A stretch of 64,000 nucleotides of DNA from Clostridia bacterium (GCA_017396465.1 JAFQLU010000131.1:7065-71064); one strand, 5' to 3'. Positions 40,915 through 55,090 are shown, counted from the first letter of the stretch. Numbers and translations are program-made. The notes: generated from the sequence alone by a model not told the origin.

Positions 40915-41053
40915 AGGCACACCACCTTTCACAAAAAGCAAATTTCACCGATTTTTCAGCAAGTTATATTCTTGTCATCTTTTTGTGGCTATGGTATGAT
41001 TATAGCATCAGGAACATTTATTGTCAATCCTATTTTATCGTGGAGGGAAACCA

Positions 41054-42397
41054 TTGAAGCACGAAACATTCCATTACGAAAATATAGAAGCCATAAAAGC
41101 AAAATTTAACGAAATCGGAGCATGTCCTCCCGTGGCAGAGAACATTGGCACGCTGTGGGATGAAGTATCCTTGGGCGCACATAGCCTGAAAAACCGTTTT
41201 GTGATTCAGCCCATGGAGGGATGCGACGGCACAAAAGCCGGTGCCCCGGACGAACTGACAAAACGGCGGTATCTGCGGTTTGCGGAAAGCGGCGCAGGCG
41301 TTATCTGGTTTGAAGCGGTTGCTATTGTGCACGAGGGCAGAGCCAATCCGAGACAGCTTTATTTATCATCGGAAACGGCGGAGGAATTTAAAAAGCTGAT
41401 TGCCGAAATCAAGGAAACCGCCATCCAAAAACACGGCTTTGCACCGAAAATCATCATGCAGGCAACCCATTCGGGCAGACAGTCCAGACCGGACGATGCA
41501 CCGAAGCCTGTGATTGCCTATCGGCATGCGCTATACGAGAAAACCCGACCGATTCCCGGGGACGAATGCATCGCTTCAGACGATGCGCTGAAAGCTTTGG
41601 AGGAAAAGTTTGCAGAAGCAACGGTTTTGGCGCAGGAGGTCGGCTTTGACGGCATCGATGTAAAGTGCTGCCACGGATATCTCTTAAACGAACTGCTTTC
41701 GGCATACACACGACCGGGGCTGTATGGCGGTTCCTTTGAAAACCGCACAAGACTATTCCGAAACGGCGTAGACGCCGCATTTTCTGCGGCGAAAGGCGAT
41801 TTTATTGTTACTTCCAGGCTAAATATATATGACGGTTTTCCCTATCCCTTCGGCTTCGGCGTGAAAGAGGGCGAGGGTAACACGCCGGACTTAACGGAAG
41901 GCATGAAACTGGTGGGTGAGCTTTATCAAAAGGGTATGCGGCTTTTAAACATCACCGCAGGAAACCCTTATGTGAACCCCCATGTGAACCGCCCTTACGA
42001 TAGCGGGGGTTACATGCCGGAGGAGCATCCTTTAGAGGGAATTCTTCGCATGAGCAATTGCACAGAAACCGTGCAGAAGGCATATCCCGATATGGTGATT
42101 GTGGGCTCGGCATTTTCCTATCTTCGCCAGTTTGCACCGCACTTTGCGGCAGGCGCAATCGAAAACGGCAATTGCACGCTGGCAGGCTTCGGACGACAAA
42201 GCTTTGCCTATCCGCAGTTTATTGAGGATTTAAAGAAAAACGGAGAAATGAACCCGAAAAAATGCTGTGTTTCCTGCAGCAGCTGTTCCAAAATGATGCG
42301 GATGGGAACGGTGGCTGGATGCATGGTGAAGGATCAGGAAGTATATCTGCCTCTGTATCGTGAGGCGGTGGCAAAGCAGGAAAGGGGGAATGTATGA
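41054..42397 (+). CDS. NADH:flavin oxidoreductase (Old Yellow Enzyme fold) with C-terminal CxxCxxC...C motif
   Basis: NRFVIQPMEG, HSGR, GFDGIDVKCCHGYLLNELLS, YGGSFENR, CVSCSSC...GC; TTG start after GGAGG. Confidence 0.87.
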   Translation: MKHETFHYENIEAIKAKFNEIGACPPVAENIGTLWDEVSLGAHSLKNRFVIQPMEGCDGTKAGAPDELTKRRYLRFAESGAGVIWFEAVAIVHEGRANPRQLYLSSETAEEFKKLIAEIKETAIQKHGFAPKIIMQATHSGRQSRPDDAPKPVIAYRHALYEKTRPIPGDECIASDDALKALEEKFAEATVLAQEVGFDGIDVKCCHGYLLNELLSAYTRPGLYGGSFENRTRLFRNGVDAAFSAAKGDFIVTSRLNIYDGFPYPFGFGVKEGEGNTPDLTEGMKLVGELYQKGMRLLNITAGNPYVNPHVNRPYDSGGYMPEEHPLEGILRMSNCTETVQKAYPDMVIVGSAFSYLRQFAPHFAAGAIENGNCTLAGFGRQSFAYPQFIEDLKKNGEMNPKKCCVSCSSCSKMMRMGTVAGCMVKDQEVYLPLYREAVAKQERGNV

Positions 42398-43152
42398 TGC
42401 AAACGGCAATTGTAACGGGCGTAACCGGCGGCATCGGCAATGAAACGGCAAAACTGTTTTTAGAAAAAGGCTGGCGCGTTGTGGGCGTGGGCAGGTCGGA
42501 CATCTCCAAAGCAGAAAACCTGACGGCGTTCGGTGAAAGATTTCTCTATGTGCAGGGCGATGTTTCGGTAAGCGACACGAAGGACAGAGCCATACAGGCG
42601 GCGCTTGATGGCGGTAACACCATTTCGGCTCTTATAAATGTTGCAGGCGTGGCACCCAAGGTGCGTGCAGACCTTTTGGAGATGACAGAGGAAAGCTACG
42701 ACTATGTGATGGACATCAACGCCAAAGGCACCTTCTTTTTCACCCAGACGGTGGCAAAGGAAATGATAAAAGCGGCGGACAAAGAAAAAAGCTTTAACGG
42801 CGCTATTGTGAATATAGCATCTATATCTTCTTATACCAGCTCCGTAAACCGCGGCGAATACTGCATCTCCAAAGCAGGCATCTCCATGATGACACAACTT
42901 TTTGCAGACCGCTTGGCAGAATATCATATCACCGTAAACGAAATCCGTCCCGGCGTGATTCAAACCAATATGACGGCAGGCGTGACGGAAAAATACGATA
43001 AACTGATAGAAGAGGGAACATTTCCCATTGCCCGTTGGGGCACGCCTTCGGACGTGGCAAAGGCAGTGTTCCTCTTTGCAGACGGAACTTTATCCTACAC
43101 CACGGGCGAAGCGCTTTCCGTAGACGGAGGCTTCTGCATCCGTCGCCTGTAA
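42394..43152 (+). CDS. Short-chain dehydrogenase/reductase
   Basis: TGVTGGIG, NVAG, YCISK, PGVIQT, VDGG. Confidence 0.93.
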   Translation: MMQTAIVTGVTGGIGNETAKLFLEKGWRVVGVGRSDISKAENLTAFGERFLYVQGDVSVSDTKDRAIQAALDGGNTISALINVAGVAPKVRADLLEMTEESYDYVMDINAKGTFFFTQTVAKEMIKAADKEKSFNGAIVNIASISSYTSSVNRGEYCISKAGISMMTQLFADRLAEYHITVNEIRPGVIQTNMTAGVTEKYDKLIEEGTFPIARWGTPSDVAKAVFLFADGTLSYTTGEALSVDGGFCIRRL

Positions 43153-43164
43153 AGGAGGTGTGAT

Positions 43165-45033
43165 ATGGAAATATTCAGCACAGAGGTTTTGATTGTGGGA
43201 AGCGGATGTGCAGGCTTAAACGCCGCAGACACCCTGTTTGATTTGGGGAAAACCGATATTCTTCTGGTAACGGAAGGCATGAACATGGGAACCTCGCGGA
43301 ATACGGGGAGCGACAAGCAGACCTATTATAAGCTTTCTTTAGCTTCGGGGGAGCCGGACTCGGTTTCGGAACTGGCAAAAACCTTCTTTTCCGGCGGCGG
43401 TGTAAACGGCGATACGGCGCTGGTTGATGCGGCGTGCTCTGTGCGCGCATTTATGAAGCTGGTGAATCTGGGTGTTCCCTTTCCCACCAACCGATACGGC
43501 GAGTTTGTGGGATATCAGACGGATCATGACACGAAAAAGCGCGCCACCTCGGCAGGACCGCTGACTTCCGGATATATGACCGAGGCACTGGAAAAATCGG
43601 TGAAACGGAAAAACATCCCCATCAAAGATGAAACAGTTATTTTTAAGATTTTAACGCAAAACGGCGCCGTCATCGGGGCTTTGGGCTATGATAAAAAAGA
43701 GCAGAAAATCGTGCTCTTCCGTTGCCCGAACATCATTCTTGCCACGGGCGGTCATGCCATGATATATGAAAACAGCGTGTACCCCGAAAGCCAGACCGGT
43801 ATGACCGGAATGGCGCTGGAGGCAGGCGCGGAAGGTGCAAATCTTTCTGAGTGGCAGTATGGTATTGCTTCCGTTGACTTTCGGTGGAACCTGTCCGGCA
43901 CCTATCAGCAGGTGATGCCGCGGTACATTTCCGTGGACGAAAAGGGAAAAGAGCATGAGTTTCTGTCGGACTATTTTGAAAAACCCGAGGACGCAGTAAA
44001 CTTCGTGTTCATGAAGGGCTATCAATGGCCTTTTGATTTTGAGAAGGTGAACGGCTCTTCTGTAATAGACCTGATTGTGTATCACGAAACCATGCACAAA
44101 GGGCGAACGGTTTATATGGATTTTACCAAGGAACCGTCGGCGTTAGAGCATGGCTTTGATACTTTGAGTGAGGAAGCATATACTTACCTTAAATCTTCCG
44201 ATGCGCTTCTTAAAACGCCTATTGCGCGGCTTGAGAAAATGAACCCTAAAGCGATAGAATTATATCAAAGTCACGGCATTGATTTAAAAAAGGATTTGCT
44301 GAAAATTTCCGTGTGCGCCCAGCACACCAACGGCGGTCTTGCGGTGGACGAAAACTATGAAACCACGGTATCCGGACTATATGCTGCAGGGGAAGTGGCA
44401 GGAACCTTTGGCGTGTATCGCCCTGGGGGCACAGCGCTGAACGCCACGCAAACGGGAAGCCTTCGGGCAGCAGAGCATATCGCGTTTTCGGTTTCTAAAA
44501 AAACGGTTTCGGACGATGTAATTTTGGATTGTGCGAACAAAGAAGTCGGTAAACTGTTCGGGGAAGCAGAATGGAATGTGGGCGAAGCAATGAAAAAATT
44601 TGCATCCGAAATGAGCCGTGTGGGCGCATTTTTAAGAGATGTTCCCGGCATGAAAAGGCTGAAAGAAATGAGCGAAAGCATGCTGAAAAGCTTTCCGCCG
44701 ATTCCCGCGGGCAAGAAAGCTGTGGCAGGCATCAAGCTGCGGGATATGCTGATAACGCAGATTGCGGTATTAGACGCGATGGTAGCGGCGGCAGAGCATT
44801 TCGGCAGCCGCGGAGGTTCTTTGGTAACGGTTGGAAATCCCCCCATGGACAGCGCAAAACAGATTTTTGCGATGACAGAAAGTCAAAAATCCGCCTGCGA
44901 AAATCAGGTGATATACACGGCGTACCAAAACGGGACGGCAAACAGCAGATTTTGCGACGTTCGCCCCATTCCCGAGGAAAACAACTGGTTTGAAACCGTG
45001 TGGAACGCATATATGAAAAAACGGAATGTATAA
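43165..45033 (+). CDS. FAD-binding protein of SdhA/FrdA/NadB superfamily
   Basis: IVGSGCAGL, LATGG, QHTNGG, GLYAAGE, RPGGTAL, SRG. Confidence 0.85.
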   Translation: MEIFSTEVLIVGSGCAGLNAADTLFDLGKTDILLVTEGMNMGTSRNTGSDKQTYYKLSLASGEPDSVSELAKTFFSGGGVNGDTALVDAACSVRAFMKLVNLGVPFPTNRYGEFVGYQTDHDTKKRATSAGPLTSGYMTEALEKSVKRKNIPIKDETVIFKILTQNGAVIGALGYDKKEQKIVLFRCPNIILATGGHAMIYENSVYPESQTGMTGMALEAGAEGANLSEWQYGIASVDFRWNLSGTYQQVMPRYISVDEKGKEHEFLSDYFEKPEDAVNFVFMKGYQWPFDFEKVNGSSVIDLIVYHETMHKGRTVYMDFTKEPSALEHGFDTLSEEAYTYLKSSDALLKTPIARLEKMNPKAIELYQSHGIDLKKDLLKISVCAQHTNGGLAVDENYETTVSGLYAAGEVAGTFGVYRPGGTALNATQTGSLRAAEHIAFSVSKKTVSDDVILDCANKEVGKLFGEAEWNVGEAMKKFASEMSRVGAFLRDVPGMKRLKEMSESMLKSFPPIPAGKKAVAGIKLRDMLITQIAVLDAMVAAAEHFGSRGGSLVTVGNPPMDSAKQIFAMTESQKSACENQVIYTAYQNGTANSRFCDVRPIPEENNWFETVWNAYMKKRNV

Positions 45034-45047
45034 AACAAAAGGAGAAG

Positions 45048-46070
45048 ATGATTATGGCAAAGAAAATGAAATTAGGTGTGATCGGTTGTGGCGGTATGGC
45101 AACCAATATCCATGTTCCCAGCATTATGGAAATTGAAAACTGCAAGATTGTTGCAGTTTGTGACCTGTACGAAGAAAAGGCAAAGGCGTTGGCGTCCAAA
45201 TATAATATCCCTAAAACGTACGCCTTGCATCACGAAATGATTGAAAAAGAAGAAATGGACGGCGTAGTGATTTTAGTAAACCCCGAACGTACCTACTGGG
45301 TGGCGGATATGTGCCTTAAGGCAGGGCTTCATGTTATGATGGAAAAGCCTGCCGGCATCAACTCCTATCAGGCGCACTCTCTGGAAAGAACGGCAAAGGA
45401 AATGGGCAAAATCGCCGCTGTTGCCATGAACAGAAGACATATCCCGTTGGTAAGAGAAGTGTTAAAGCGCGTAAAAGCGGCAACGGAAATCACGCAGATC
45501 GACAGCCGTTTCATGAAATTTTCCAATATCCACAAGGATTGGCACTACACCAGCGCATATAACTGCGACATCATCCACGCGCTGGATTTGCTCCGTTATG
45601 CGGCAGGCTCCGAGCCGAAAGACGCGGCAACAGTTGTGCAACAGTTCGATTCTCCCGTTGACAACGCATGGACCAGTGTTATCCGCTTTGAAAACGGCAT
45701 CACAGGCACACTTCGTGCAAACTACCGTTGCGCAGGCAGATTCCATGATTTAGAAATTCAGGGTCCCCGTGCAAGTGCGTTTATCAATTTAGGTCTGGGG
45801 GATATTACCTGCAATGCAAAAATTTATTACGGGGATGGAAACTCCATGTACTCTGCGGCTTCTACCGGTGTGGAAGAAACCAGAGTGGAATTCCTGGATG
45901 GTATAGAACTCGCCGGAGGAAGAACGGAATATTCTCACTACTATGGATATAAAGCGGAAAATGTTGACTTTGTCAACTGTGTACTGGAAGGCAAAACTCC
46001 GATTTGCACCATTGAAGATGCGGCAAAATCCATGGATATGGCAGAGCTTCTGCTGGAAAAGAGAATTTAA
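45048..46070 (+). CDS. Gfo/Idh/MocA family oxidoreductase
   Basis: GVIGCGG, HVMMEKP, NRR, DIIHALD; AGGAG RBS. Confidence 0.92.
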   Translation: MIMAKKMKLGVIGCGGMATNIHVPSIMEIENCKIVAVCDLYEEKAKALASKYNIPKTYALHHEMIEKEEMDGVVILVNPERTYWVADMCLKAGLHVMMEKPAGINSYQAHSLERTAKEMGKIAAVAMNRRHIPLVREVLKRVKAATEITQIDSRFMKFSNIHKDWHYTSAYNCDIIHALDLLRYAAGSEPKDAATVVQQFDSPVDNAWTSVIRFENGITGTLRANYRCAGRFHDLEIQGPRASAFINLGLGDITCNAKIYYGDGNSMYSAASTGVEETRVEFLDGIELAGGRTEYSHYYGYKAENVDFVNCVLEGKTPICTIEDAAKSMDMAELLLEKRI

Positions 46071-46105
46071 ACAGCAAAAAATCTGTATAGGAAAAGGGGA
46101 GACGC

Positions 46106-46864
46106 GTGGTGATACAAAAAGGCTTGGTATCTGTAACCTTTCGGAATCTTTCGCCGGAGGAAGTTATAGCGGTAGCAAAAAAAGCAGAGTTTTCCGCCAT
46201 CGAATGGGGCGGAGATGTGCATGTGCCGGCAGGAGATATTGAAAAAGCAAAAGAAGTGCGGAAGCTGACAGAGAGTGCCGGTCTTTCTGTTTCATCATAT
46301 GGCTCTTATTTCCGTGCAGGCGATAACGAAAATGCGAAAGAAGCCTTTGCGCCAATTTTACAAACGGCGGTGGCGTTGGGTGCACCGGTCATTCGCATAT
46401 GGGCAGGCAGTAAATGGTCTTGGAAAGCGGATGAAGCATATAAAAAAAAGGTGGTTTCCGATACGCAGATTGCGTGCGATATAGCAAAGGAATACGGCAT
46501 AGATATTGCCTATGAATATCACGGCTGGTCGCTGACGGACAACCGTTTCTCTGCGCTAGATACGGTGAACAACGTAGACCGAGAAAACATGTATCTGTAC
46601 TGGCAACCGAATTTTACCTTAAGCGAAGAGGAAAACGTGCTTGCCCTTCGGGCGGTTCTGTCATATCTTAAGCATGTGCATTGCTTTTACTGGGACGCCG
46701 ATGAAGCAAAATTTCCGCTGGAAGAGGGCAGAGGCATCTGGACGCGGTTTGCTGAAGTTTTAAAAGCGGACGAAAAGGACCGTGCCGTGATGCTGGAATT
46801 TGTAAAAGATGGAAAAGAAGAGCAGTGCATAGAGGATGCAAAGGTTCTGCTTGATTTATTTTAA
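46106..46864 (+). CDS. Sugar phosphate isomerase/epimerase (AP endonuclease 2 TIM barrel)
   Basis: SVTFR, IEWGGDVH, SSYGSY, IRIWAG, EYH, YWQP, LEF. Confidence 0.85.
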   Translation: MVIQKGLVSVTFRNLSPEEVIAVAKKAEFSAIEWGGDVHVPAGDIEKAKEVRKLTESAGLSVSSYGSYFRAGDNENAKEAFAPILQTAVALGAPVIRIWAGSKWSWKADEAYKKKVVSDTQIACDIAKEYGIDIAYEYHGWSLTDNRFSALDTVNNVDRENMYLYWQPNFTLSEEENVLALRAVLSYLKHVHCFYWDADEAKFPLEEGRGIWTRFAEVLKADEKDRAVMLEFVKDGKEEQCIEDAKVLLDLF

Positions 46865-46886
46865 AATGATTTGAGGCGGTATTCAT

Positions 46887-47696
46887 ATGAAATTTGTGGG
46901 ACATACAATGGCAACGCCAAATCTTCCGGTTTCGGAGGCAATTGCGCTTTTTCGCTCCATCGGGCTGGACGGAATCGAAATCGTGGCGCAGGAGGGTGGC
47001 GCCTTTTCGATCAACGACCCCGAGGAAAAGGTCAAAGCCGTGGTAAAACAGGCAAAGGCTCTGCCTTGCGGCGTGGTTACCTTAACGCCTTATTACTGGG
47101 ATATCAATAACATAGACCCCAAAATCGCGGAAGCAGAAATTGCAGGAATGAAAAAGTCTATTGATTTAGCGGCTTTTATGGGTGCGCAGTTTGTCCGTGC
47201 CTACGGTGGCAAGGAAGAAGCGGGCGGCACACGGGTGGAAAATTATAAAAATGCGGTGGAGGCTTTAAAAGAAATCGGCGCATATGCATCCAAAGCCAAG
47301 GTGACCGTTTTGGTGGAAAACCATCCCGGCACCGTGACCCGAACCGGCGAGGATACCTATCGGCTGATAAACGCCGTTGGTTCGGACAGCGTAAAAGCGC
47401 TGTATGACCCGGCAAACGTGCTGCACGATACCACCGAGGATTGGGAAAAAACCTACGAGGTGCAAAAGGATATCATCGGCTACGTGCATGTCAAGGACTT
47501 TTTTATGGTTGACAACGAGCGAAAAGCCTGCGTGGTGGGCAATGGTATTGTGCCCTGGGATAAGATTATGAAAAAGCTGTCGGGCTACGACGGATTTTTG
47601 TCCTTTGAATATGAAAAACGGTGGTATCCGGACCAGCTTCCCGATGCGGAAGTGGGCGTGAAAATGTGCGCGGATTATATCCGGTCTCTGATATAG
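46887..47696 (+). CDS. Sugar phosphate isomerase/epimerase (AP endonuclease 2 TIM barrel)
   Basis: GLDGIE, ENH, DPAN, HVKD, SFE metal-binding motifs. Confidence 0.88.
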   Translation: MKFVGHTMATPNLPVSEAIALFRSIGLDGIEIVAQEGGAFSINDPEEKVKAVVKQAKALPCGVVTLTPYYWDINNIDPKIAEAEIAGMKKSIDLAAFMGAQFVRAYGGKEEAGGTRVENYKNAVEALKEIGAYASKAKVTVLVENHPGTVTRTGEDTYRLINAVGSDSVKALYDPANVLHDTTEDWEKTYEVQKDIIGYVHVKDFFMVDNERKACVVGNGIVPWDKIMKKLSGYDGFLSFEYEKRWYPDQLPDAEVGVKMCADYIRSLI

Positions 47697-47804: not shown

Positions 47805-47833
47805 TTGACAAAATGCGGTTTTTTTGCTATAAT
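47805..47833 (+). promoter_or_regulatory. Consensus sigma-A promoter of the aspS-gat operon
   Basis: TTGACA-17bp-TATAAT with extended -10 TG. Confidence 0.85.
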
Positions 47834-47839
47834 AATTTG

Positions 47840-48072
47840 CGGAGACTCGGCTTTTGTGGAAAGTCTGTCAGGGAGAATGCGTCACCGACTGAAAGCGCGT
47901 TTGAGATGAGTAGTAAGCTTGGGAACACTCCGATTGCTTTTTAAAACAAAATAAAAAAGAGGATGCGCGCTTTTTGCGTATCAATGCGGGTGGCACCGCG
48001 GGTAATGTTTATTTTAAGTTTACTCGTCCCGGGAATATTATGTTTCGTAATATTCTTGGGACTTATTTTTTT
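47840..48072 (+). ncRNA. T-box riboswitch leader, probable Asn (AAC) specifier
   Basis: Stem I base cggag/ctccg, AGGGAG and GACTGAAAG boxes, gggAACa at 47921-47927, T-box AATGCGGGTGGCACCGCG at 47983-48000, terminator 48026-48072. Confidence 0.88.
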
Positions 48073-48097: not shown

Positions 48098-50176
48098 ATG
48101 TACAGAACACATTTTTGTAACGACATCCGTGACGCACATATCGGGCAGACCGTTCAGCTTGCCGGCTGGGTGGATGTTATCCGTGACCACGGTGGCGTTA
48201 TCTTTGTGGACATCCGCGACTATACGGGTGTGACACAGGTGGTTATCCACAATGAGGCACTTTTGGAAAATGTGAACCGTGAAACCGTTATTTCCGTCAG
48301 CGGTATTGTGGAAAAGAGAGACCCGGAAACCGTAAACGAAAAAATTGAAACAGGTAATGTTGAGCTGGTTGCAGATTCTTTGGACGTATTAGGCAAAAGC
48401 AAGAATATGCTCCCCTTTGAAGTGAGAGCATCCAGAACCAGTAAAGACGAGGTTCGTTTGAAATACCGTTATCTGGACCTTCGTAATCCCAAAAATCACG
48501 ATAATCTGGTGATGCGTTCCAAAATCATCCGTCACCTGAGAAATAAAATGGAAGAAAAGAACTTCCTGGATATGCAGACACCGATTTTGACCGCATCTTC
48601 TCCCGAAGGCGCAAGAGACTTTCTGGTGCCCAGCCGTAAGCATCCCGGTAAGTTCTATGCGCTGCCTCAGGCACCCCAGCAGTTCAAACAGCTTCTGATG
48701 GTGTCGGGGTTTGACAGATACTTCCAGGTAGCACCTTGCTTCCGTGACGAGGATGCCCGTGCAGACCGTTCTCCCGGCGAATTCTATCAGCTGGACTTTG
48801 AAATGGCGTTTGCAACCCAGGAAGAAGTATTAGAGGTTTGTGAAGACGTAATCTACGATACTTTTAAAACCTTCTCCGATAAAAAAGTAACAGAAAAACC
48901 TTTCCGCCGTATCACATACGCGGAATCTATGATGAAATACGGTTCCGATAAGCCGGACCTTCGAAACCCCCTTATCATCTGTGACTTAACCGACTTTTTC
49001 GCAGGGGTGGACTTCCCGGCGTTTAAGGGCAGACCGGTTCGCGGTATCGTGGCAGACTGTCAGGGCAAATCCAAGAAATTCTTTGAGGATTCCTTAAAGT
49101 TTGCAACCTCTGCCGAGGTTGGTCTGGGCGGCTTAGGCTATATCACCTTAAAAGAGGGTGTGTTCGCAGGTCCTATTGCGAAATTCCTGTCCGACGCACA
49201 GAAAGAAGAAATCACGGCGTTAACCGGTGTGAAAGAGGGCGAAACCCTGTTCTTCATCTGTGACGATAAAAAGAACGACACCGAGAAAAAAGCAGGTCAT
49301 ATCCGTACCTGGCTGGCAAAACCCGAACAGTTGGATTTAATCCGCGATGATGCCTTTGAATTCTGCTTTGTTGTGGACTTCCCCATGTTTGAGGACGATG
49401 AAGAAACCGGTGAAACCATCTTCACCCACAACCCCTTCTCCATGCCGCAGGGCGGAATGGAAGCGCTTCTTACCAAGAACCCCAACGATGTGCTGGCTTA
49501 TCAGTACGACCTGGTATGTAACGGTATTGAGCTTGCATCCGGTGCGGTTCGTAACCACGATATCGACATCATGAAAAAAGCATTTGAAATCGCAGGCTAT
49601 GATGAAGAAGAATTAAAGAGCCGTTTCAATGCGTTATATACCGCATTCCAGTACGGTGCACCTCCCCATGCCGGCATGGCACCGGGTATTGACCGTATGG
49701 TAATGCTTTTGACCGACGAAGAAAAAATCTTGGATGTTATCGCATTCCCCTTAAACGGTAACGCACAGGATCTGCTCCTTGGTGCACCCAGTGAGGTTAC
49801 CAATCAGCAGCTGGAGGATGTTCACCTGTTAGGCAGCGGCAGTGCATTGGCACAGCGCGCGCAGGCAACCGGCGGTGCATCCAAAGCGGCAAAGGGCAAG
49901 CGTTCCACCTTCTCTAACGCACAGCAGCTGAACCAGATTTCTTTAACCGATGAGGAAGAAGCTGTGGTAGAGGGTATCTTCAAGGCAATGAGCGAAAGCG
50001 AAGAAAAGCTCAAAGCAGTAGATACAGAGAATGTGGAAGAAATGGTACACGTTATGCCGATGACCAACGTTCTGCGTGAAGACGTGCGCAAGCAGCCGTT
50101 TACCAGAGATAGCCTTTTGGAAGGCGCTCCTGAACGCAGTGAGGACAGCTGGCAGGTACCCAGACTTGTAAAGTGA
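48098..50176 (+). CDS. aspS: Aspartyl-tRNA synthetase (probably non-discriminating) fused in frame to a C-terminal GatC domain
   Basis: YRTH.C, RDHGG, RYLDLR, PEGARDF, LPQAPQQFKQ, CFRDED, GAPPHAG, VIAFP; Gly/Ala/Lys linker; then LNQISL...VDTENVE...NVLREDV...LLEGAPE....WQVPRLV. Confidence 0.92.
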   Translation: MYRTHFCNDIRDAHIGQTVQLAGWVDVIRDHGGVIFVDIRDYTGVTQVVIHNEALLENVNRETVISVSGIVEKRDPETVNEKIETGNVELVADSLDVLGKSKNMLPFEVRASRTSKDEVRLKYRYLDLRNPKNHDNLVMRSKIIRHLRNKMEEKNFLDMQTPILTASSPEGARDFLVPSRKHPGKFYALPQAPQQFKQLLMVSGFDRYFQVAPCFRDEDARADRSPGEFYQLDFEMAFATQEEVLEVCEDVIYDTFKTFSDKKVTEKPFRRITYAESMMKYGSDKPDLRNPLIICDLTDFFAGVDFPAFKGRPVRGIVADCQGKSKKFFEDSLKFATSAEVGLGGLGYITLKEGVFAGPIAKFLSDAQKEEITALTGVKEGETLFFICDDKKNDTEKKAGHIRTWLAKPEQLDLIRDDAFEFCFVVDFPMFEDDEETGETIFTHNPFSMPQGGMEALLTKNPNDVLAYQYDLVCNGIELASGAVRNHDIDIMKKAFEIAGYDEEELKSRFNALYTAFQYGAPPHAGMAPGIDRMVMLLTDEEKILDVIAFPLNGNAQDLLLGAPSEVTNQQLEDVHLLGSGSALAQRAQATGGASKAAKGKRSTFSNAQQLNQISLTDEEEAVVEGIFKAMSESEEKLKAVDTENVEEMVHVMPMTNVLREDVRKQPFTRDSLLEGAPERSEDSWQVPRLVK

Positions 50177-50186
50177 GGTGTGTGAA

Positions 50187-51371
50187 ATGAAATATTATGC
50201 TGAAAAGCTGAGTGATAAAGGAACTATCGCGGTGGAAGATACCATTCTGATGAAGGATGTTGCATCTTGCGCAGGTTCCCGTATTCTGGAAGGGTTCAAG
50301 TCTCTCTTCAGCGCAGAAGCGGTTGTCCGCCTGCAGGAAAAGGGCTATGAAATCGCAGGGAAAACCCCCGTAGGCGAATTCGGTTTAGACTTAGTCGGCG
50401 AATTTTCCTACGGCGCTGAGCAGGAAGGTACCCTTTCCGGCGCGGCGGCATCTTTGGTAGCGCAGGGTGAAGCAGAAGCGGCTCTGGGCGTTGACATGAA
50501 CGGTGCAACCAGAAGAGCGGCGGCACTTGCCGGCGTGGACTTCTTAAAACCCACCTACGGAACTGTTTCCCGTTACGGCATCATTTCCTGTGCCGCATCC
50601 GGCGAGCAGGTAGGTGTATACAGTAAAGACGCAGCAGGCGTTGCTAAAATCATGGGTGTGATTGCAGGCCACGATGATAAAGACGGCACAAGCCTGCCGG
50701 AAGCATCTTATGACTATGTAACCGATAAAGCTATCTCCGGCAAAAAGGTTGCCATCATCAGCGATTTGCTTAAAAAAGCAGACGATGATGTGAAAGAAAA
50801 GGTAAATGCCTATGCTGATGCACTTCGCGCAAACGGTGCTAAAGTGGAAGAAATCTCCTGCGACCTGTTTGAAGTGGCAAACACCGCTTGGCAGATTTTA
50901 ATGTGTGCGGAAACCTGCAACAACGTTTCCCGTTACGACGGCGTGAAATACGGTCACCGCGCAGCTTCTTATAAAAATATTGACGAGCTGTATGTAAATT
51001 CCAGAACAGAGGGCTTTAACTTCTTAACAAAAGCCGTGATTCTGTACGGTTCGGATGTGTTATCCAAAAACAGATATAAAGATTGCTACGATAAGTCTTT
51101 GCGCGTTCGCCGCGTGGTGGCAGAGGGCATGAAAAAGCTTTTTGAAAGCTATGATGCCGTGCTGACTCCCGCCTGCGCAAAATCGGCTTACGAAGCATAC
51201 GATATTCATGATGCATTCGGCAAAGTGTTCTCCGAGAGCGTGTTCACCGCAGCTGCAAACTTAATCGGTACACCGGCGCTCGTTTCCGGCGGCGTTCAGC
51301 TTCTGGGTAAGCACTTTGATGAAAGCACACTTTTAAGCCTTGCATATCGTGTGGAAAGGAAGGGTGAATGA
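50187..51371 (+). CDS. gatA: GatA-like amidase-signature subunit, N-terminally truncated and lacking the catalytic triad
   Basis: Position between gatC domain and gatB; GSRILEGF, KPTYGTVSRYG, SRYDGVKYGHR, SRTEGF retained; KDN->EDT, GGSSGG->GTLSGA, GSDTGGSIR->GVDMNGATR. Confidence 0.85.
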   Translation: MKYYAEKLSDKGTIAVEDTILMKDVASCAGSRILEGFKSLFSAEAVVRLQEKGYEIAGKTPVGEFGLDLVGEFSYGAEQEGTLSGAAASLVAQGEAEAALGVDMNGATRRAAALAGVDFLKPTYGTVSRYGIISCAASGEQVGVYSKDAAGVAKIMGVIAGHDDKDGTSLPEASYDYVTDKAISGKKVAIISDLLKKADDDVKEKVNAYADALRANGAKVEEISCDLFEVANTAWQILMCAETCNNVSRYDGVKYGHRAASYKNIDELYVNSRTEGFNFLTKAVILYGSDVLSKNRYKDCYDKSLRVRRVVAEGMKKLFESYDAVLTPACAKSAYEAYDIHDAFGKVFSESVFTAAANLIGTPALVSGGVQLLGKHFDESTLLSLAYRVERKGE

Positions 51372-51373
51372 TT

Positions 51374-52792
51374 ATGAAATACGAACTCGTCATCGGTCTG
51401 GAAACCCATGTGGAACTGGAAACCAACTCCAAGATTTTCTGTTCCTGCGGCGGTCACTCTGCCGCAAAAGAACCCAATGACTGCGTATGCCCTGCCTGCA
51501 GCGGTATGCCGGGGATGCTTCCCGTTATGAACAAGCATGTGGTGGAGCTTGCCGTAACAGCAGGCCTGATGCTGAACTGTAACATCAATCGCTACACCAC
51601 CTTTGATAAGAAAAACTATTATTATCCCGATCTGCCCTGTGCATATCAGATTACCCAGCTGAACCACCCCATCTGTACCGACGGTGTGGTTACCATTAAA
51701 ACATCCGAGGGTGCAAGAGATATCCGCATCAAGCAGATTCATATGGAAGAGGATGCAGGTAAGCTGGTGCACGGCGGAAGCTTCTCTTTTGTGGACTTTA
51801 ACCGTACCAGCGTCCCGCTGATTGAAATCGTAACACAGCCCGACTTCCGCAGTGCAGAAGAGGTTGTAACGTATCTGAATAAATTAAAATCCATGTTCCG
51901 CTCCGGCGGCATTTCGGAATGTGAAGAAGGCGCAATGCGTTGCGACGTAAACATTTCCGTTCGTCCCGAGGGAAGTGAAGAATTCGGCGTTCGTACCGAA
52001 ATCAAGAACATGAGCTCCTTTGACGCTATTGACCGCGCGATTCGCTACGAGGCACAGCGCCATATGGATGCGTTAGAATACGAAATCGAAGAACTGGTGC
52101 AGGAAACCAGAAGATTCGACGATGTCAGCGGTAAAACCTTTGCAATGCGTAACAAGGAAACCGAAGCGGACTACCGTTATTTCCCCGATGCAAACCTGAT
52201 GCCTATCGTAATTGACGATGCTTGGCTGGAAAAAATCAAAGCAAACAAGCCCGTTGCAGTAGACGAAAAGGCGGAAGAATACAGAGAAGCAGGCATTTCC
52301 GAAAAAGAAATCGACATGCTTCTGGCAAGCCACAAAATCAGCAAGCTTTTAGACGATGTGGTAGCAAAAGGCTGCAACGCAAAAGACACCGCAACCTGGA
52401 TATTAACCGACTGTGCAGGTATCCTGCGTAAAGAAGGTAAAACCCTGGGTGAGCTGGAGGTTACGGCGGACAGCTTAGCGGCTTTGATACAGATGGTAGA
52501 CGGCGGCAAAATCAACCGCAGTGCGGCAAGAAAAGTGCTGATTGCCATGATTATTGACGGCGCAGATCCCGTGGCATACTGTAAGGAAAACGGTCTGGAC
52601 AGACAGGTGGATTCTTCCATGATTGAAGGCATCATTGATGCGGTTATCGCCGGAAATCCCCAGGCTGTGGAAGACTATAAAAACGGTAAAACCAAGGCTG
52701 TTCAGGCTCTGTTCGGTGCTTGTATGAAACAGCTTAAAGGTGCAGGTGACCCTGCGGTTATCAAAGAAATTTTAGAACAGAAATTAAAGTAA
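51374..52792 (+). CDS. gatB: Asp-tRNA(Asn)/Glu-tRNA(Gln) amidotransferase subunit B
   Basis: IGLETHVEL, KNYYYPDLP, HMEEDAGK, PLIEIVT, MRCDVNIS, EIKN, QETR, DYRYFP, YqeY-like tail. Confidence 0.96.
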   Translation: MKYELVIGLETHVELETNSKIFCSCGGHSAAKEPNDCVCPACSGMPGMLPVMNKHVVELAVTAGLMLNCNINRYTTFDKKNYYYPDLPCAYQITQLNHPICTDGVVTIKTSEGARDIRIKQIHMEEDAGKLVHGGSFSFVDFNRTSVPLIEIVTQPDFRSAEEVVTYLNKLKSMFRSGGISECEEGAMRCDVNISVRPEGSEEFGVRTEIKNMSSFDAIDRAIRYEAQRHMDALEYEIEELVQETRRFDDVSGKTFAMRNKETEADYRYFPDANLMPIVIDDAWLEKIKANKPVAVDEKAEEYREAGISEKEIDMLLASHKISKLLDDVVAKGCNAKDTATWILTDCAGILRKEGKTLGELEVTADSLAALIQMVDGGKINRSAARKVLIAMIIDGADPVAYCKENGLDRQVDSSMIEGIIDAVIAGNPQAVEDYKNGKTKAVQALFGACMKQLKGAGDPAVIKEILEQKLK

Positions 52793-52801
52793 GAAAAAAC
52801 A

Positions 52802-52835
52802 AAACAGCGAAGGTATAGCGTTACCTTCGCTGTTT
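52802..52835. terminator. Hairpin after gatB with weak U-tail on the plus strand
   Basis: aaacagcgaaggta-tagcgt-taccttcgctgttt; followed by gatta, preceded by an A-rich run. Confidence 0.6.
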
Positions 52836-52853: not shown

Positions 52854-53918
52854 ATGAAAAAAATTCTGCTGATTATGGTGGGCGGCACTATCTGTACCGC
52901 CCTGAACGAAAAAGGAACGCTTTCGGTTTCTGCGGATGCCGGCGCGCTGATAACAGAAAATTTCTATGCGTCCGATTCCCCTTATGCCGGAAGTGTTACA
53001 TTTGATATAACAGAAAACCTCGGCATCTTAAGCGAAAATATGACGGTGGACAACTGGAACCGTATGATAGCTTTGTACCGGGATTCCATCGGAAAAGACA
53101 GCTATAACGGCGTGATTTTTGCCCACGGAACAGATACGCTTGCTTATTCTGCCGCTTTGTTTGCACAGCTTTTGAGTGACACCGATATTCCTGTGTTCTT
53201 CGTGTCCAGCAACGCGCGGCTCACATCGCCCCGTGCCAACGGAAATGAGAACTTCCGTGCGGCGGTGGAATGTATCGCAAGAGGGATTGTGCCGAATGTA
53301 TATGCGGTATACCGGAATATTTCGGACGTAAGAATGTATTTGCATCCGGCATCGAGACTGATGCAGTGCGGAAATTATTCGGAGGATTTTTATAGTTTTG
53401 GCGCGATGGATATAACAAATATTAATGATGAAAATAGCGCGGAATATTTTGAAATGCTTCGGAAAAGCTATCCGCCTGAAAAACGCAAACCGGGCTTTGA
53501 TTTCAGCAAACTGCCGCCACTTTGCGACCATGTTCTGATGCTGATGCCCTATGTGGGACTGCGGTATGATGTGATAGACTACAGCAAGTTTTCTGCGGTA
53601 CTTCACGGCACCTACCATTCCGGAACGGCTTGTGCCGAGGCGGAAAATGAAAGACATATGCTTTTGTCCATGCTGGATGCCTGCGGAAAAGAGAAGGCAG
53701 ATGTGTATTTTGCTCCGTCGAAGCCGGAGGGGGAAATTTATGATACGGTACGGGTGATTGCATCCCACGGTGAGGGAAACGAAAAAATTCGGTTTCTTTA
53801 CGGTTATACCAATGAAACGGCGTATGCAAAGCTTCTTCTGGCGTATTCTGTGATGAGTGAGGAAGAAAGAGAAGAATTTATCCGTACAGAACGGAATTTT
53901 GAAAAAATTGATGCGTAA
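52854..53918 (+). CDS. Asparaginase/glutaminase-family protein (AnsA/GatD-like fold), atypical
   Basis: MVGGTIC, LSENMT, HGTDTLAYSA, TYHSGT; GAGGT RBS. Confidence 0.85.
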   Translation: MKKILLIMVGGTICTALNEKGTLSVSADAGALITENFYASDSPYAGSVTFDITENLGILSENMTVDNWNRMIALYRDSIGKDSYNGVIFAHGTDTLAYSAALFAQLLSDTDIPVFFVSSNARLTSPRANGNENFRAAVECIARGIVPNVYAVYRNISDVRMYLHPASRLMQCGNYSEDFYSFGAMDITNINDENSAEYFEMLRKSYPPEKRKPGFDFSKLPPLCDHVLMLMPYVGLRYDVIDYSKFSAVLHGTYHSGTACAEAENERHMLLSMLDACGKEKADVYFAPSKPEGEIYDTVRVIASHGEGNEKIRFLYGYTNETAYAKLLLAYSVMSEEEREEFIRTERNFEKIDA

Positions 53919-53932
53919 AAAGGATGATAATA

Positions 53933-55090
53933 ATGACAGTAAAACTGTATGACAAAGATGCATATATCAAAGAATTTACCGCCACAGTTCTGTCCTGCGA
54001 GGAGACTGATGGCGCATATCAGGTCGTGTTGGACGAAACGGCGTTTTTCCCCGAAGGAGGCGGTCAGCCGGCAGATACCGGAACGCTGGGTGAGGTAAAT
54101 GTTAAAGATGTGCAGGAGGAAAAGGGCATCATCGTTCATATAACCGACGGCGCTTTGCCTGTGGGGGAAAAGGTTTCAGGAAAGCTCAATTGGGACATAC
54201 GTTATTCACGCATGCAGAGTCACGCCGGAGAGCATATCGTTGCAGGAACGGTGCATACCATGTTTGGCTACGATAATGTGGGCTTTCATTTGAACGACAG
54301 CTTTATGACCGTGGATGTGAGCGGTCCTTTAACCAAAGAGGATATCGGCAGAATCGAGCTTGCGGCAAACAAAGCCATTTATCAGAACAACGCCATCACC
54401 GTAACATTCCCCTCAACGGAGGAAGTGGCGGCGTTAGAGTATCGCAGTAAGCTGGACATCACCGAGGGGCTGCGCATTGTGACCATCGAAAATGTGGATT
54501 GCTGTGCTTGTTGCGCACCGCATCCCAAAAGCACGGGAGAAATTGGCGCGATAAAAATTTTAGACTTCTATCCCAACAAAGGCGGAACCCGAATGGAAAT
54601 GGTGGCAGGTTTGAATGCATATCTGGACTATAAAAAACTGCACGAAGCCAATAAAACATTGATGAAGCTGCTCTCTGCCGCAAGAGATGAAGTGGCGGAA
54701 ACCGTAGAAAAGTTAAACGAGCAACTGCAACAACTCAGAGGCGAAAATCAAAGACTTTCCAAGGAACTGGCACTTTCCGCCATGGCACCGGTTGCGGTAG
54801 GTGATTCTGCCTATGTGATTTCGGAAGGCTTATCTTATGACGAGTTGCGCCATTGCTCCAATAGCTTAACGGAGCAGGGCTTCAAAAACTGCATTCTTTT
54901 GTCTCGCTCGGAGGAATCAAGCTATATCTATGTGGTAAGCAGTAGTGAAAACGAGGCAAAGGAAAAGGTTTCCGCGCTGAACGAAGCATTTTCCGGCAAA
55001 GGCGGCGGAAAACCCAATTACGCCCAGGGGAAAATCACGGTAGAAGATGTGGATGCCGCGAAAAGCTTATTGGAAAAATTGTTGCAATAA
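53933..55090 (+). CDS. AlaX-type alanyl-tRNA editing protein with C-terminal DHHA1/C-Ala domain
   Basis: FFPEGGGQPADTG, HAGEH (HxxxH), CCAPH (CxxxH), GKGGGKPNYAQG; no aminoacylation domain. Confidence 0.9.
   Translation: MTVKLYDKDAYIKEFTATVLSCEETDGAYQVVLDETAFFPEGGGQPADTGTLGEVNVKDVQEEKGIIVHITDGALPVGEKVSGKLNWDIRYSRMQSHAGEHIVAGTVHTMFGYDNVGFHLNDSFMTVDVSGPLTKEDIGRIELAANKAIYQNNAITVTFPSTEEVAALEYRSKLDITEGLRIVTIENVDCCACCAPHPKSTGEIGAIKILDFYPNKGGTRMEMVAGLNAYLDYKKLHEANKTLMKLLSAARDEVAETVEKLNEQLQQLRGENQRLSKELALSAMAPVAVGDSAYVISEGLSYDELRHCSNSLTEQGFKNCILLSRSEESSYIYVVSSSENEAKEKVSALNEAFSGKGGGKPNYAQGKITVEDVDAAKSLLEKLLQ

Follow-up and report, generated by a model that had tools for sequence, protein, structure and literature searches.

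The 64 000-nucleotide stretch of DNA from a Clostridia bacterium that was analysed here (the window) contains an operon in which an aspartyl-tRNA synthetase (AspRS) is joined in frame to GatC, the fusion being real and forming one polypeptide, and in which the GatA encoded between the GatC domain and gatB is short. As judged from alignments, the glutaminase site of this GatA is lost and its gene is nonetheless under purifying selection. We regard it as fairly probable, on the sequence evidence given below, that AspRS–GatC, GatA and GatB form a tethered, asparagine-inducible complex which makes Asn-tRNA(Asn) from outside ammonia. The sequence-only reading of the window had pointed to the fusion and overlooked the catalytically dead GatA, which changes the mechanism. 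The promoter, the leader and the four genes from the fusion gene to the asparaginase-like one lie on the plus strand.

The fusion gene (48098–50176) is a single open frame of 692 aa. Residues 1–577 (48098–49828) make up a bacterial-type AspRS with OB fold, catalytic domain and GAD domain, which matches TIGR00459 with 614 bits (cut-off 374) and PRK00476 with 749 bits (cut-off 443). They are followed by an Ala/Gly/Ser-rich linker of 26 aa that also contains Lys (49829–49906, 65% GC), the length of which lies within three residues of that in relatives, and by the GatC domain (residues 604–692, 49907–50176). The latter matches TIGR00135 over the model length at residues 604–691 with 58–62 bits (cut-off 47.1) and Pfam PF02686 with 45.8–51 bits (cut-off 23), and its top PDB matches are the GatC chains 2df4_C and 3h0l_C. 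The in-frame fusion proposed by the sequence-only reading is thus borne out and the C-terminal part scores as GatC in a domain scan; the proposed end of GatC at 50176 holds, and its start at 49829 has to be moved to ∼49907 since the span included the linker. A free gatC, correctly said to be missing from the window, was found neither there nor in the remainder of the source assembly, which is 54.6% complete and in which no further amidase gene was found.

Relatives of the junction were taken as the best 80 of at least 584 confirmed GTDB loci; these 80 belong to Lachnospiraceae, Acutalibacteraceae, Oscillospiraceae and other Clostridia, mostly from animal-gut assemblies. The frame is continuous at the junction in 78 of the 80 and the remaining two are cut at a contig edge; one of the 78 (L036) has a stop within AspRS. 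Contigs from four runs in four studies (one of the runs may be the source sample) span the junction with 0–2 differing letters, no indel and no stop, the only listed change inside the linker being 49876 T>A, a synonymous third-position change. No in-frame start codon is conserved among residues 575–623 (best position 14 of 79 rows), and the earlier claim that the junction contains neither a stop nor an internal start is upheld by this and by the spanning contigs. The junction region is matched by 1224 proteins, with Pfam tRNA-synt_2 and GatC both present in 120 of the 120 matches listed. The RNA runs yielded contigs that are mostly 80–90% alike and derive from relatives; among the matches listed, none crosses the junction, and they were set aside as a gauge of expression. 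Mean identity among relatives amounts to 91% for AspRS, 80% for GatC and 60% for the linker, the core of which is highly variable, and a rough dN/dS (first 40 rows, saturated dS) to 0.03, 0.05 and 0.18, respectively.

A quick unrooted tree of 19 AspRS cores places the fused proteins together in a single clade with a support of 100. This clade sits inside a DHGG/RSPGEF group that includes unfused sisters, namely those of two genomes with free gatC and short GatA (G014 and G107), one stand-alone enzyme and one from a locus with free gatC and intact GatA (L161). A second type of fusion with intact GatA (genomes G078 and G004) groups with the housekeeping AspRS. The fusion types thus fall in separate tree positions, which implies at least two origins of the fusion and makes it separable from GatA loss; the tree being unrooted, it leaves the order of fusion and GatA loss unfixed. 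The second fusion protein (L090:959–3049 and L091) comprises 697 aa, is 38% identical to that of the window and is followed by an intact GatA. Its copies in G078 and G004 are nearly identical though the genomes belong to different families, which suggests a recent transfer or a binning mix-up.

The fused AspRS carries an RDHGG motif, which we take to be a mark of non-discriminating enzymes. Together with an asparagine T-box, the gene context and the existence of carrier genomes without AsnRS, the motif points indirectly to a fused enzyme that would charge tRNA(Asn). Several genomes without AsnRS have a housekeeping AspRS of the NLGG type as their sole AspRS, so that the His motif predicts specificity poorly here. 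The source genome also encodes GlnRS and GluRS as well as a second, free AspRS of archaeal type (L003:1132–2472, G000 C8). At the Lys/Pro site it has Lys, in contrast to the Pro of the non-discriminating Thermus enzyme. The archaeal-type AspRS may be the one that discriminates and serves tRNA(Asp), which would reverse the division of labour of Thermus/Deinococcus.

The short GatA (50187–51371, 394 aa) has lost the catalytic triad, defined as Ser-cisSer-Lys in PMC2330236. When aligned to 3h0l_A and 3al0_A it corresponds to GatA from about residue 60 onwards, the N-terminal ∼55 residues being missing, and it scores 266 bits against TIGR00132 (cut-off 481) without covering the full length. In the window protein the catalytic Lys is replaced by Glu17 and the nucleophilic Ser by Ala107; a deletion has removed the GGSSGG loop that would contain the cis-Ser, and other residues stand in place of the Arg and Asp that bind Gln. 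All 78 relatives are likewise without the Gln-binding residues and the N-terminal ∼55 residues. Among 78 relatives the Lys position is occupied by Asp in 77, by Glu in one and by Lys in none, and the nucleophile position by Ala in 51, Ser in 19, Thr in three, Phe in two and Gly in one, with a gap in two. The protein is conserved, with 66–80% identity across loci and a dN/dS of ∼0.11 (first 40 rows, saturated dS), and its predicted model has the amidase-signature fold and matches GatA chains best. In a wider alignment of 139 rows (127 representatives of 330–520 aa from 150 listed, plus 12 rows of our own) the triad is lost in 44 of the 45 proteins shorter than 430 aa and in 28 longer ones; degenerate GatA is therefore widespread.

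GatB with its YqeY domain (51368–52792) scores 500 bits against TIGR00133 (cut-off 315) and its metal/ATP residues are intact; the GLExHxE motif is present in 74 of 74 relatives and EED in 72 of 74. A deletion of two residues lies ahead of the G-x-[ML]-R-C-D motif, and zinc-site-like N-terminal cysteines are retained. Lys88 (S. aureus numbering), which we assume to be the ammonia gate residue, is replaced by Cys in the window protein and in all 74 relatives; a literature search for this gate role returned no text. An opened ammonia gate was considered as the meaning of this replacement and rejected: L161, with an active GatA, is also without Lys88, and the replacement is therefore not counted as support.

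Expression would be governed by a σA-type promoter (47805–47833; TTGACA-17-TATAAT with TG extension, 12 of 12 consensus positions), also present upstream of most related leaders, and by a T-box riboswitch leader (47841–48062). The leader matches Rfam RF00230 with E = 3.4e-6 and 34.6 bits, below the gathering threshold of 93, and a search at the gathering score gave no match. Its Stem I (47841–47931) presents the specifier codon AAC (Asn) at 47924–47926 and is followed by the T-box sequence (47983–48000) and by a terminator (48026–48062) that precedes the operon. The T-box motif occurs in 61 of 69 leaders and the specifier codon is AAC in 60 of 68, seven being without the element and one unplaced. 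Among 57 leaders the basal Stem I helix shows covariation (GGAG/CTCC 20, GAAG/CTTC 14, AGAG/CTCT 10, GGAG/CTCT 9). Behind gatB a strong 14 bp hairpin (52802–52835) is a possible terminator. Upstream of the operon lies a catabolic cluster (41021–47696), named by eye and apparently not conserved with it, of genes for a flavin oxidoreductase, a short-chain dehydrogenase, an FAD-binding protein, a Gfo/Idh/MocA oxidoreductase and two sugar-phosphate-isomerase-like proteins. An AlaX-like editing protein with a DHHA1 domain is encoded at 53924–55090; it lies within the flanks of just ten of the 80 best loci and was therefore excluded from the parts of the system.

A census of the same order covered 115 genomes, of which 39 besides the source genome matched the junction query and were examined further. 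Eighteen genomes of the order carry the fusion with a short GatA, and two carry the dead-GatA operon with free gatC (L088 in G014, L089/L143 in G107) and retain the T-box motif, so that the fusion is dispensable for the system. Triad loss was read directly in four of these 20 carriers; for the others it was deduced, with length, score and position as the basis. A normal gatCAB is additionally present in 15 of the 18 fusion carriers, which makes the operon redundant there. Among 20 carriers that are at least 90% complete, GlnRS is missing from 15, each of which retains a normal gatA; four of the five near-complete carriers with GlnRS have no normal gatA (Fisher p = 0.001, which overstates the significance because the carriers are kin and not independent). 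The retention of a normal gatCAB by the GlnRS-less carriers fits a use of the operon for Asn only. The absence of AsnRS and normal gatA from the source assembly proves nothing at its level of completeness. One fusion carrier has an AsnRS match with one internal TGA (G104 C10:49822–51198), and another genome has a second operon with gatC, an intact gatA and gatB followed by an archaeal-type AspRS-like gene (L142, G144 C47).

Neither AsnRS nor a normal GatA was found in G081 (96% complete), G082 (92% complete, 7% contaminated) and G107 (98% complete), the sole GatB copies of which sit in the dead-GatA operon; asnA and asnB are absent from G081 and G082. To judge by gene content, the operon is apparently the only visible route to Asn-tRNA(Asn) in these three genomes. 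A second census comprised 50 of the 80 best GTDB carriers (21 selected because an asparaginase-like gene is linked to the operon, and 29 unlinked ones in list order), the completeness of the assemblies not being given. It showed a normal gatA in 16, AsnRS in 12 and GlnRS in 42, with 23 having neither gatA nor AsnRS. Four of the 50 (G115, G127, G128 and G154) have neither GlnRS nor a normal gatA: either these assemblies are incomplete or the operon GatB would also amidate Glu-tRNA(Gln), which counts against a strict Asn-only use. The tethering and restriction to tRNA(Asn) put forward by the sequence-only reading thus receive indirect support from the AAC specifiers, and the restriction also from the gatA of all 15 near-complete GlnRS-less carriers; the four genomes, unless incomplete, speak against the restriction.

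A protein with the type I asparaginase/GatD fold is encoded at 52854–53918; Thr12 and Thr93-Asp94 are kept and the position of the triad Lys is Gln171. It remains below the NCBIfam cut-offs (85 versus 260 and 69 versus 324 bits). With L108–L131 and L149–L228 it belongs to a broad asparaginase-fold family, assessed with a quick tree, which is marked by a SEN[ML] motif and by the absence of Lys from the triad position; in one locus (L039:11771–13822) such a protein is fused to a C-terminal sequence that by eye resembles a PfkB-like sugar kinase. The protein may simply turn Asn back into Asp in cells without AsnRS, and this too would release ammonia. A complex prediction for the dead GatA with this protein gave a score of 0.00, which is evidence neither for nor against an interaction. 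An asparaginase-like match was found in three of 20 junction-negative genomes; five of the 20 were checked and all five have gatB and a normal gatA, so that this figure gives a background rate only. A free glutaminase (PF04960) was found in two of five genomes tested and is absent from the three sole-route genomes. Gut habitats are ammonia-rich. According to PMC4027206, NH4Cl can substitute for Gln in a GatAB-type enzyme in vitro, and in yeast GatFAB a weakened glutaminase site leads to higher NH4Cl-driven activity.

The favoured mechanism would run as follows. At Asn shortage the operon would be switched on by uncharged tRNA(Asn) via the T-box, and the AspRS part would load Asp onto tRNA(Asn). 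The GatC tail would clamp the dead GatA onto GatB, so that every AspRS subunit would carry its own amidotransferase and mischarged tRNA would be handed over at high local concentration. In the sequence-only reading this would amount to two GatAB units per AspRS dimer and to a forced channelling. GatB would then phosphorylate Asp-tRNA(Asn) and amidate it with free NH3/NH4+, GatA acting as scaffold and entry, and Gln-tRNA would be made elsewhere, by GlnRS or by a normal GatCAB of separate origin in the genome. PMC3367201 describes the bacterial-type transamidosome as dynamic and as letting go of AspRS (PMC8406222 also describes it as dynamic), which gives a tether a purpose. With slightly better than an even chance, the transamidosome of a widespread group of gut Clostridia has become a one-piece, glutaminase-free Asn-tRNA synthetase, in which GatC is joined to AspRS, GatA serves as a scaffold pseudo-enzyme and the nitrogen is drawn either from free ammonia or from a GatD-like hydrolase without the Lys (Asn to Asp plus NH3), and which would allow asparagine use without AsnRS.

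As to this nitrogen source, we find it doubtful that the linked asparaginase/GatD-fold protein is the actual amide hydrolase, a bacterial counterpart of archaeal GatD that would break down Asn or Gln and supply the complex with ammonia (and Asp). Its gene lies within the fetched flanks of 21 of the 80 best loci, whether upstream, downstream or convergent; 16 of 21 linked genomes and seven of 29 unlinked ones have neither AsnRS nor normal gatA (p = 0.0005, kin not independent), and AsnRS is present in one of 21 and 11 of 29, respectively. All three near-complete sole-route genomes have the gene beside the operon (directly upstream in G107), seven of seven unlinked sole-route genomes encode a member of the wider family elsewhere, and ten of 11 unlinked AsnRS-positive carriers gave no family match. 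The protein shares the SENM motif with GatD, its best PDB sequence match by a small margin (47 versus 44.6 bits); a fold search, however, places plain asparaginases above GatD, and all 22 sequences have Gln where the Thr-Lys-Asp triad has its catalytic Lys, as read from sequence alignment only. The gene is moreover absent from the flanks of 59 of the 80 best loci (some flanks being short) and separated from gatB by the strong hairpin, no operon gene lies close by in 75 of 80 metagenome loci of the wider family, the family is found in genomes with normal gatA, and in L161 the gene lies upstream of an aspS-gatCAB operon whose GatA is intact.

The remaining alternatives concern the fusion and GatA themselves. 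An assembly error that deleted a stop codon between aspS and gatC might be suspected as the source is a metagenome-assembled genome; the identical open junction in 78 of 80 best loci and in contigs of four studies refutes this, and its probability is practically nil. That the fusion merely couples the synthesis or stoichiometry of the subunits (or reflects neutral loss of a stop codon) and entails no tRNA channelling would suit the dead-GatA operons with free gatC in G014 and G107, the variable linker core and the repeated origin of AspRS–GatC fusions in the order, as expected of adjacent genes. We consider it unlikely in view of the constant spacer (20–23 aa in 79 of 79 rows) and of 78 loci that have acquired neither stop nor restart at the junction despite saturated synonymous divergence; a covalent link also necessarily keeps GatAB near the synthetase if GatC binds. 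A rebuilt active site in the short GatA, releasing ammonia from some amide by different chemistry, could account for the numerous polar residues that are invariant around the former site (D18, E64, D68, E72, D103, C244 and N245) and for the Ser retained by 19 of 78 relatives, but is very unlikely: the nucleophile position varies freely among Ala, Ser, Thr, Phe and Gly, the region of the deleted cis-Ser loop is hypervariable, the Gln-binding residues are gone and among 44 short GatA representatives no residue pattern substitutes for the triad. Finally, the fused GatC and operon GatB might borrow an active housekeeping GatA, the dead one being a regulator or relic. Normal gatA is at hand in 15 of 18 fusion carriers of the order and in 16 of 50 other carriers, but it is missing from 34 of those 50 (one with a partial copy) and from four of 20 near-complete ones, and the purifying selection on the dead gatA likewise makes such borrowing highly improbable.

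If the favoured ammonia-driven, tethered complex is confirmed, ammonia-dependent Asn-tRNA synthesis would run in vivo through a natural, conserved version with a dead GatA. This version would apparently be indispensable in some genomes and would offer a natural model of the ancestral state that has been proposed, as well as a ready-made covalent transamidosome for structural and channelling tests. The automated labels ‘aspartate--tRNA ligase’ and ‘gatA’ would then misstate nitrogen use in abundant animal-gut bacteria.

A full-text literature search, with subscription papers and supplements mostly outside its scope, returned no study of a natural AspRS–GatC fusion or of a triad-less GatA. Saad et al. 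2012 reportedly described a T-box-controlled operon for tRNA-dependent amidation (the AspRS–GatCAB pathway) in Clostridium acetobutylicum, which is not known to include a fusion or a dead GatA. The bacterial Asn transamidosome of nondiscriminating AspRS, GatCAB and tRNA(Asn) (PDB entries 4WJ3 and 3KFU; H. pylori and M. tuberculosis complexes, PMC3367201 and PMC8406222) has the same four domains and presumably the same two-step reaction; the window differs from it in having synthetase and GatC as one chain and a GatA without glutaminase site. Canonical GatCAB (S. aureus 2DF4, A. aeolicus 3H0L) shares the GatA fold, the GatB catalytic core with YqeY, and GatC, whereas the window GatA is without the triad, the Gln pocket and the N-terminal ∼55 residues, and Lys88 of GatB is Cys. 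According to PMC2330236, every characterised tRNA-dependent amidotransferase combines a kinase subunit with an active glutaminase. Archaeal GatDE is similar in that an asparaginase-fold protein could feed ammonia to a GatB/E-type subunit (PMC2330236), but the neighbour in the window, an optional one, has neither the N-terminal domain of GatD nor the Lys of the triad. A synthetase is likewise covalently tied to GatC in the engineered GatC-linker-GluRS of the Thermotoga glutamine transamidosome (PDB entry 3AL0, chain C, 592 aa), which in contrast is laboratory-made, has the opposite order, contains GluRS rather than AspRS and works with an active GatA. The layout of AspRS followed in frame by GatC is shared with NCBIfam NF009460/PRK12820 (bifunctional aspartyl-tRNA synthetase/amidotransferase subunit C), against which the window protein scores 456.5 bits with a cut-off of 1379, compared with 637–641 for the unfused housekeeping AspRS of relatives. 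This low score and the position in the DHGG/RSPGEF clade with unfused sisters indicate that the window fusion is probably independent of the PRK12820 family, as compared by model score and with an AspRS tree without PRK12820 members. Since NCBIfam already has a model of this layout, a point missed by the sequence-only reading, the fusion in itself is of modest novelty; the interest lies more in the dead GatA, and the new part is a variant of the Asn transamidosome that contains it.
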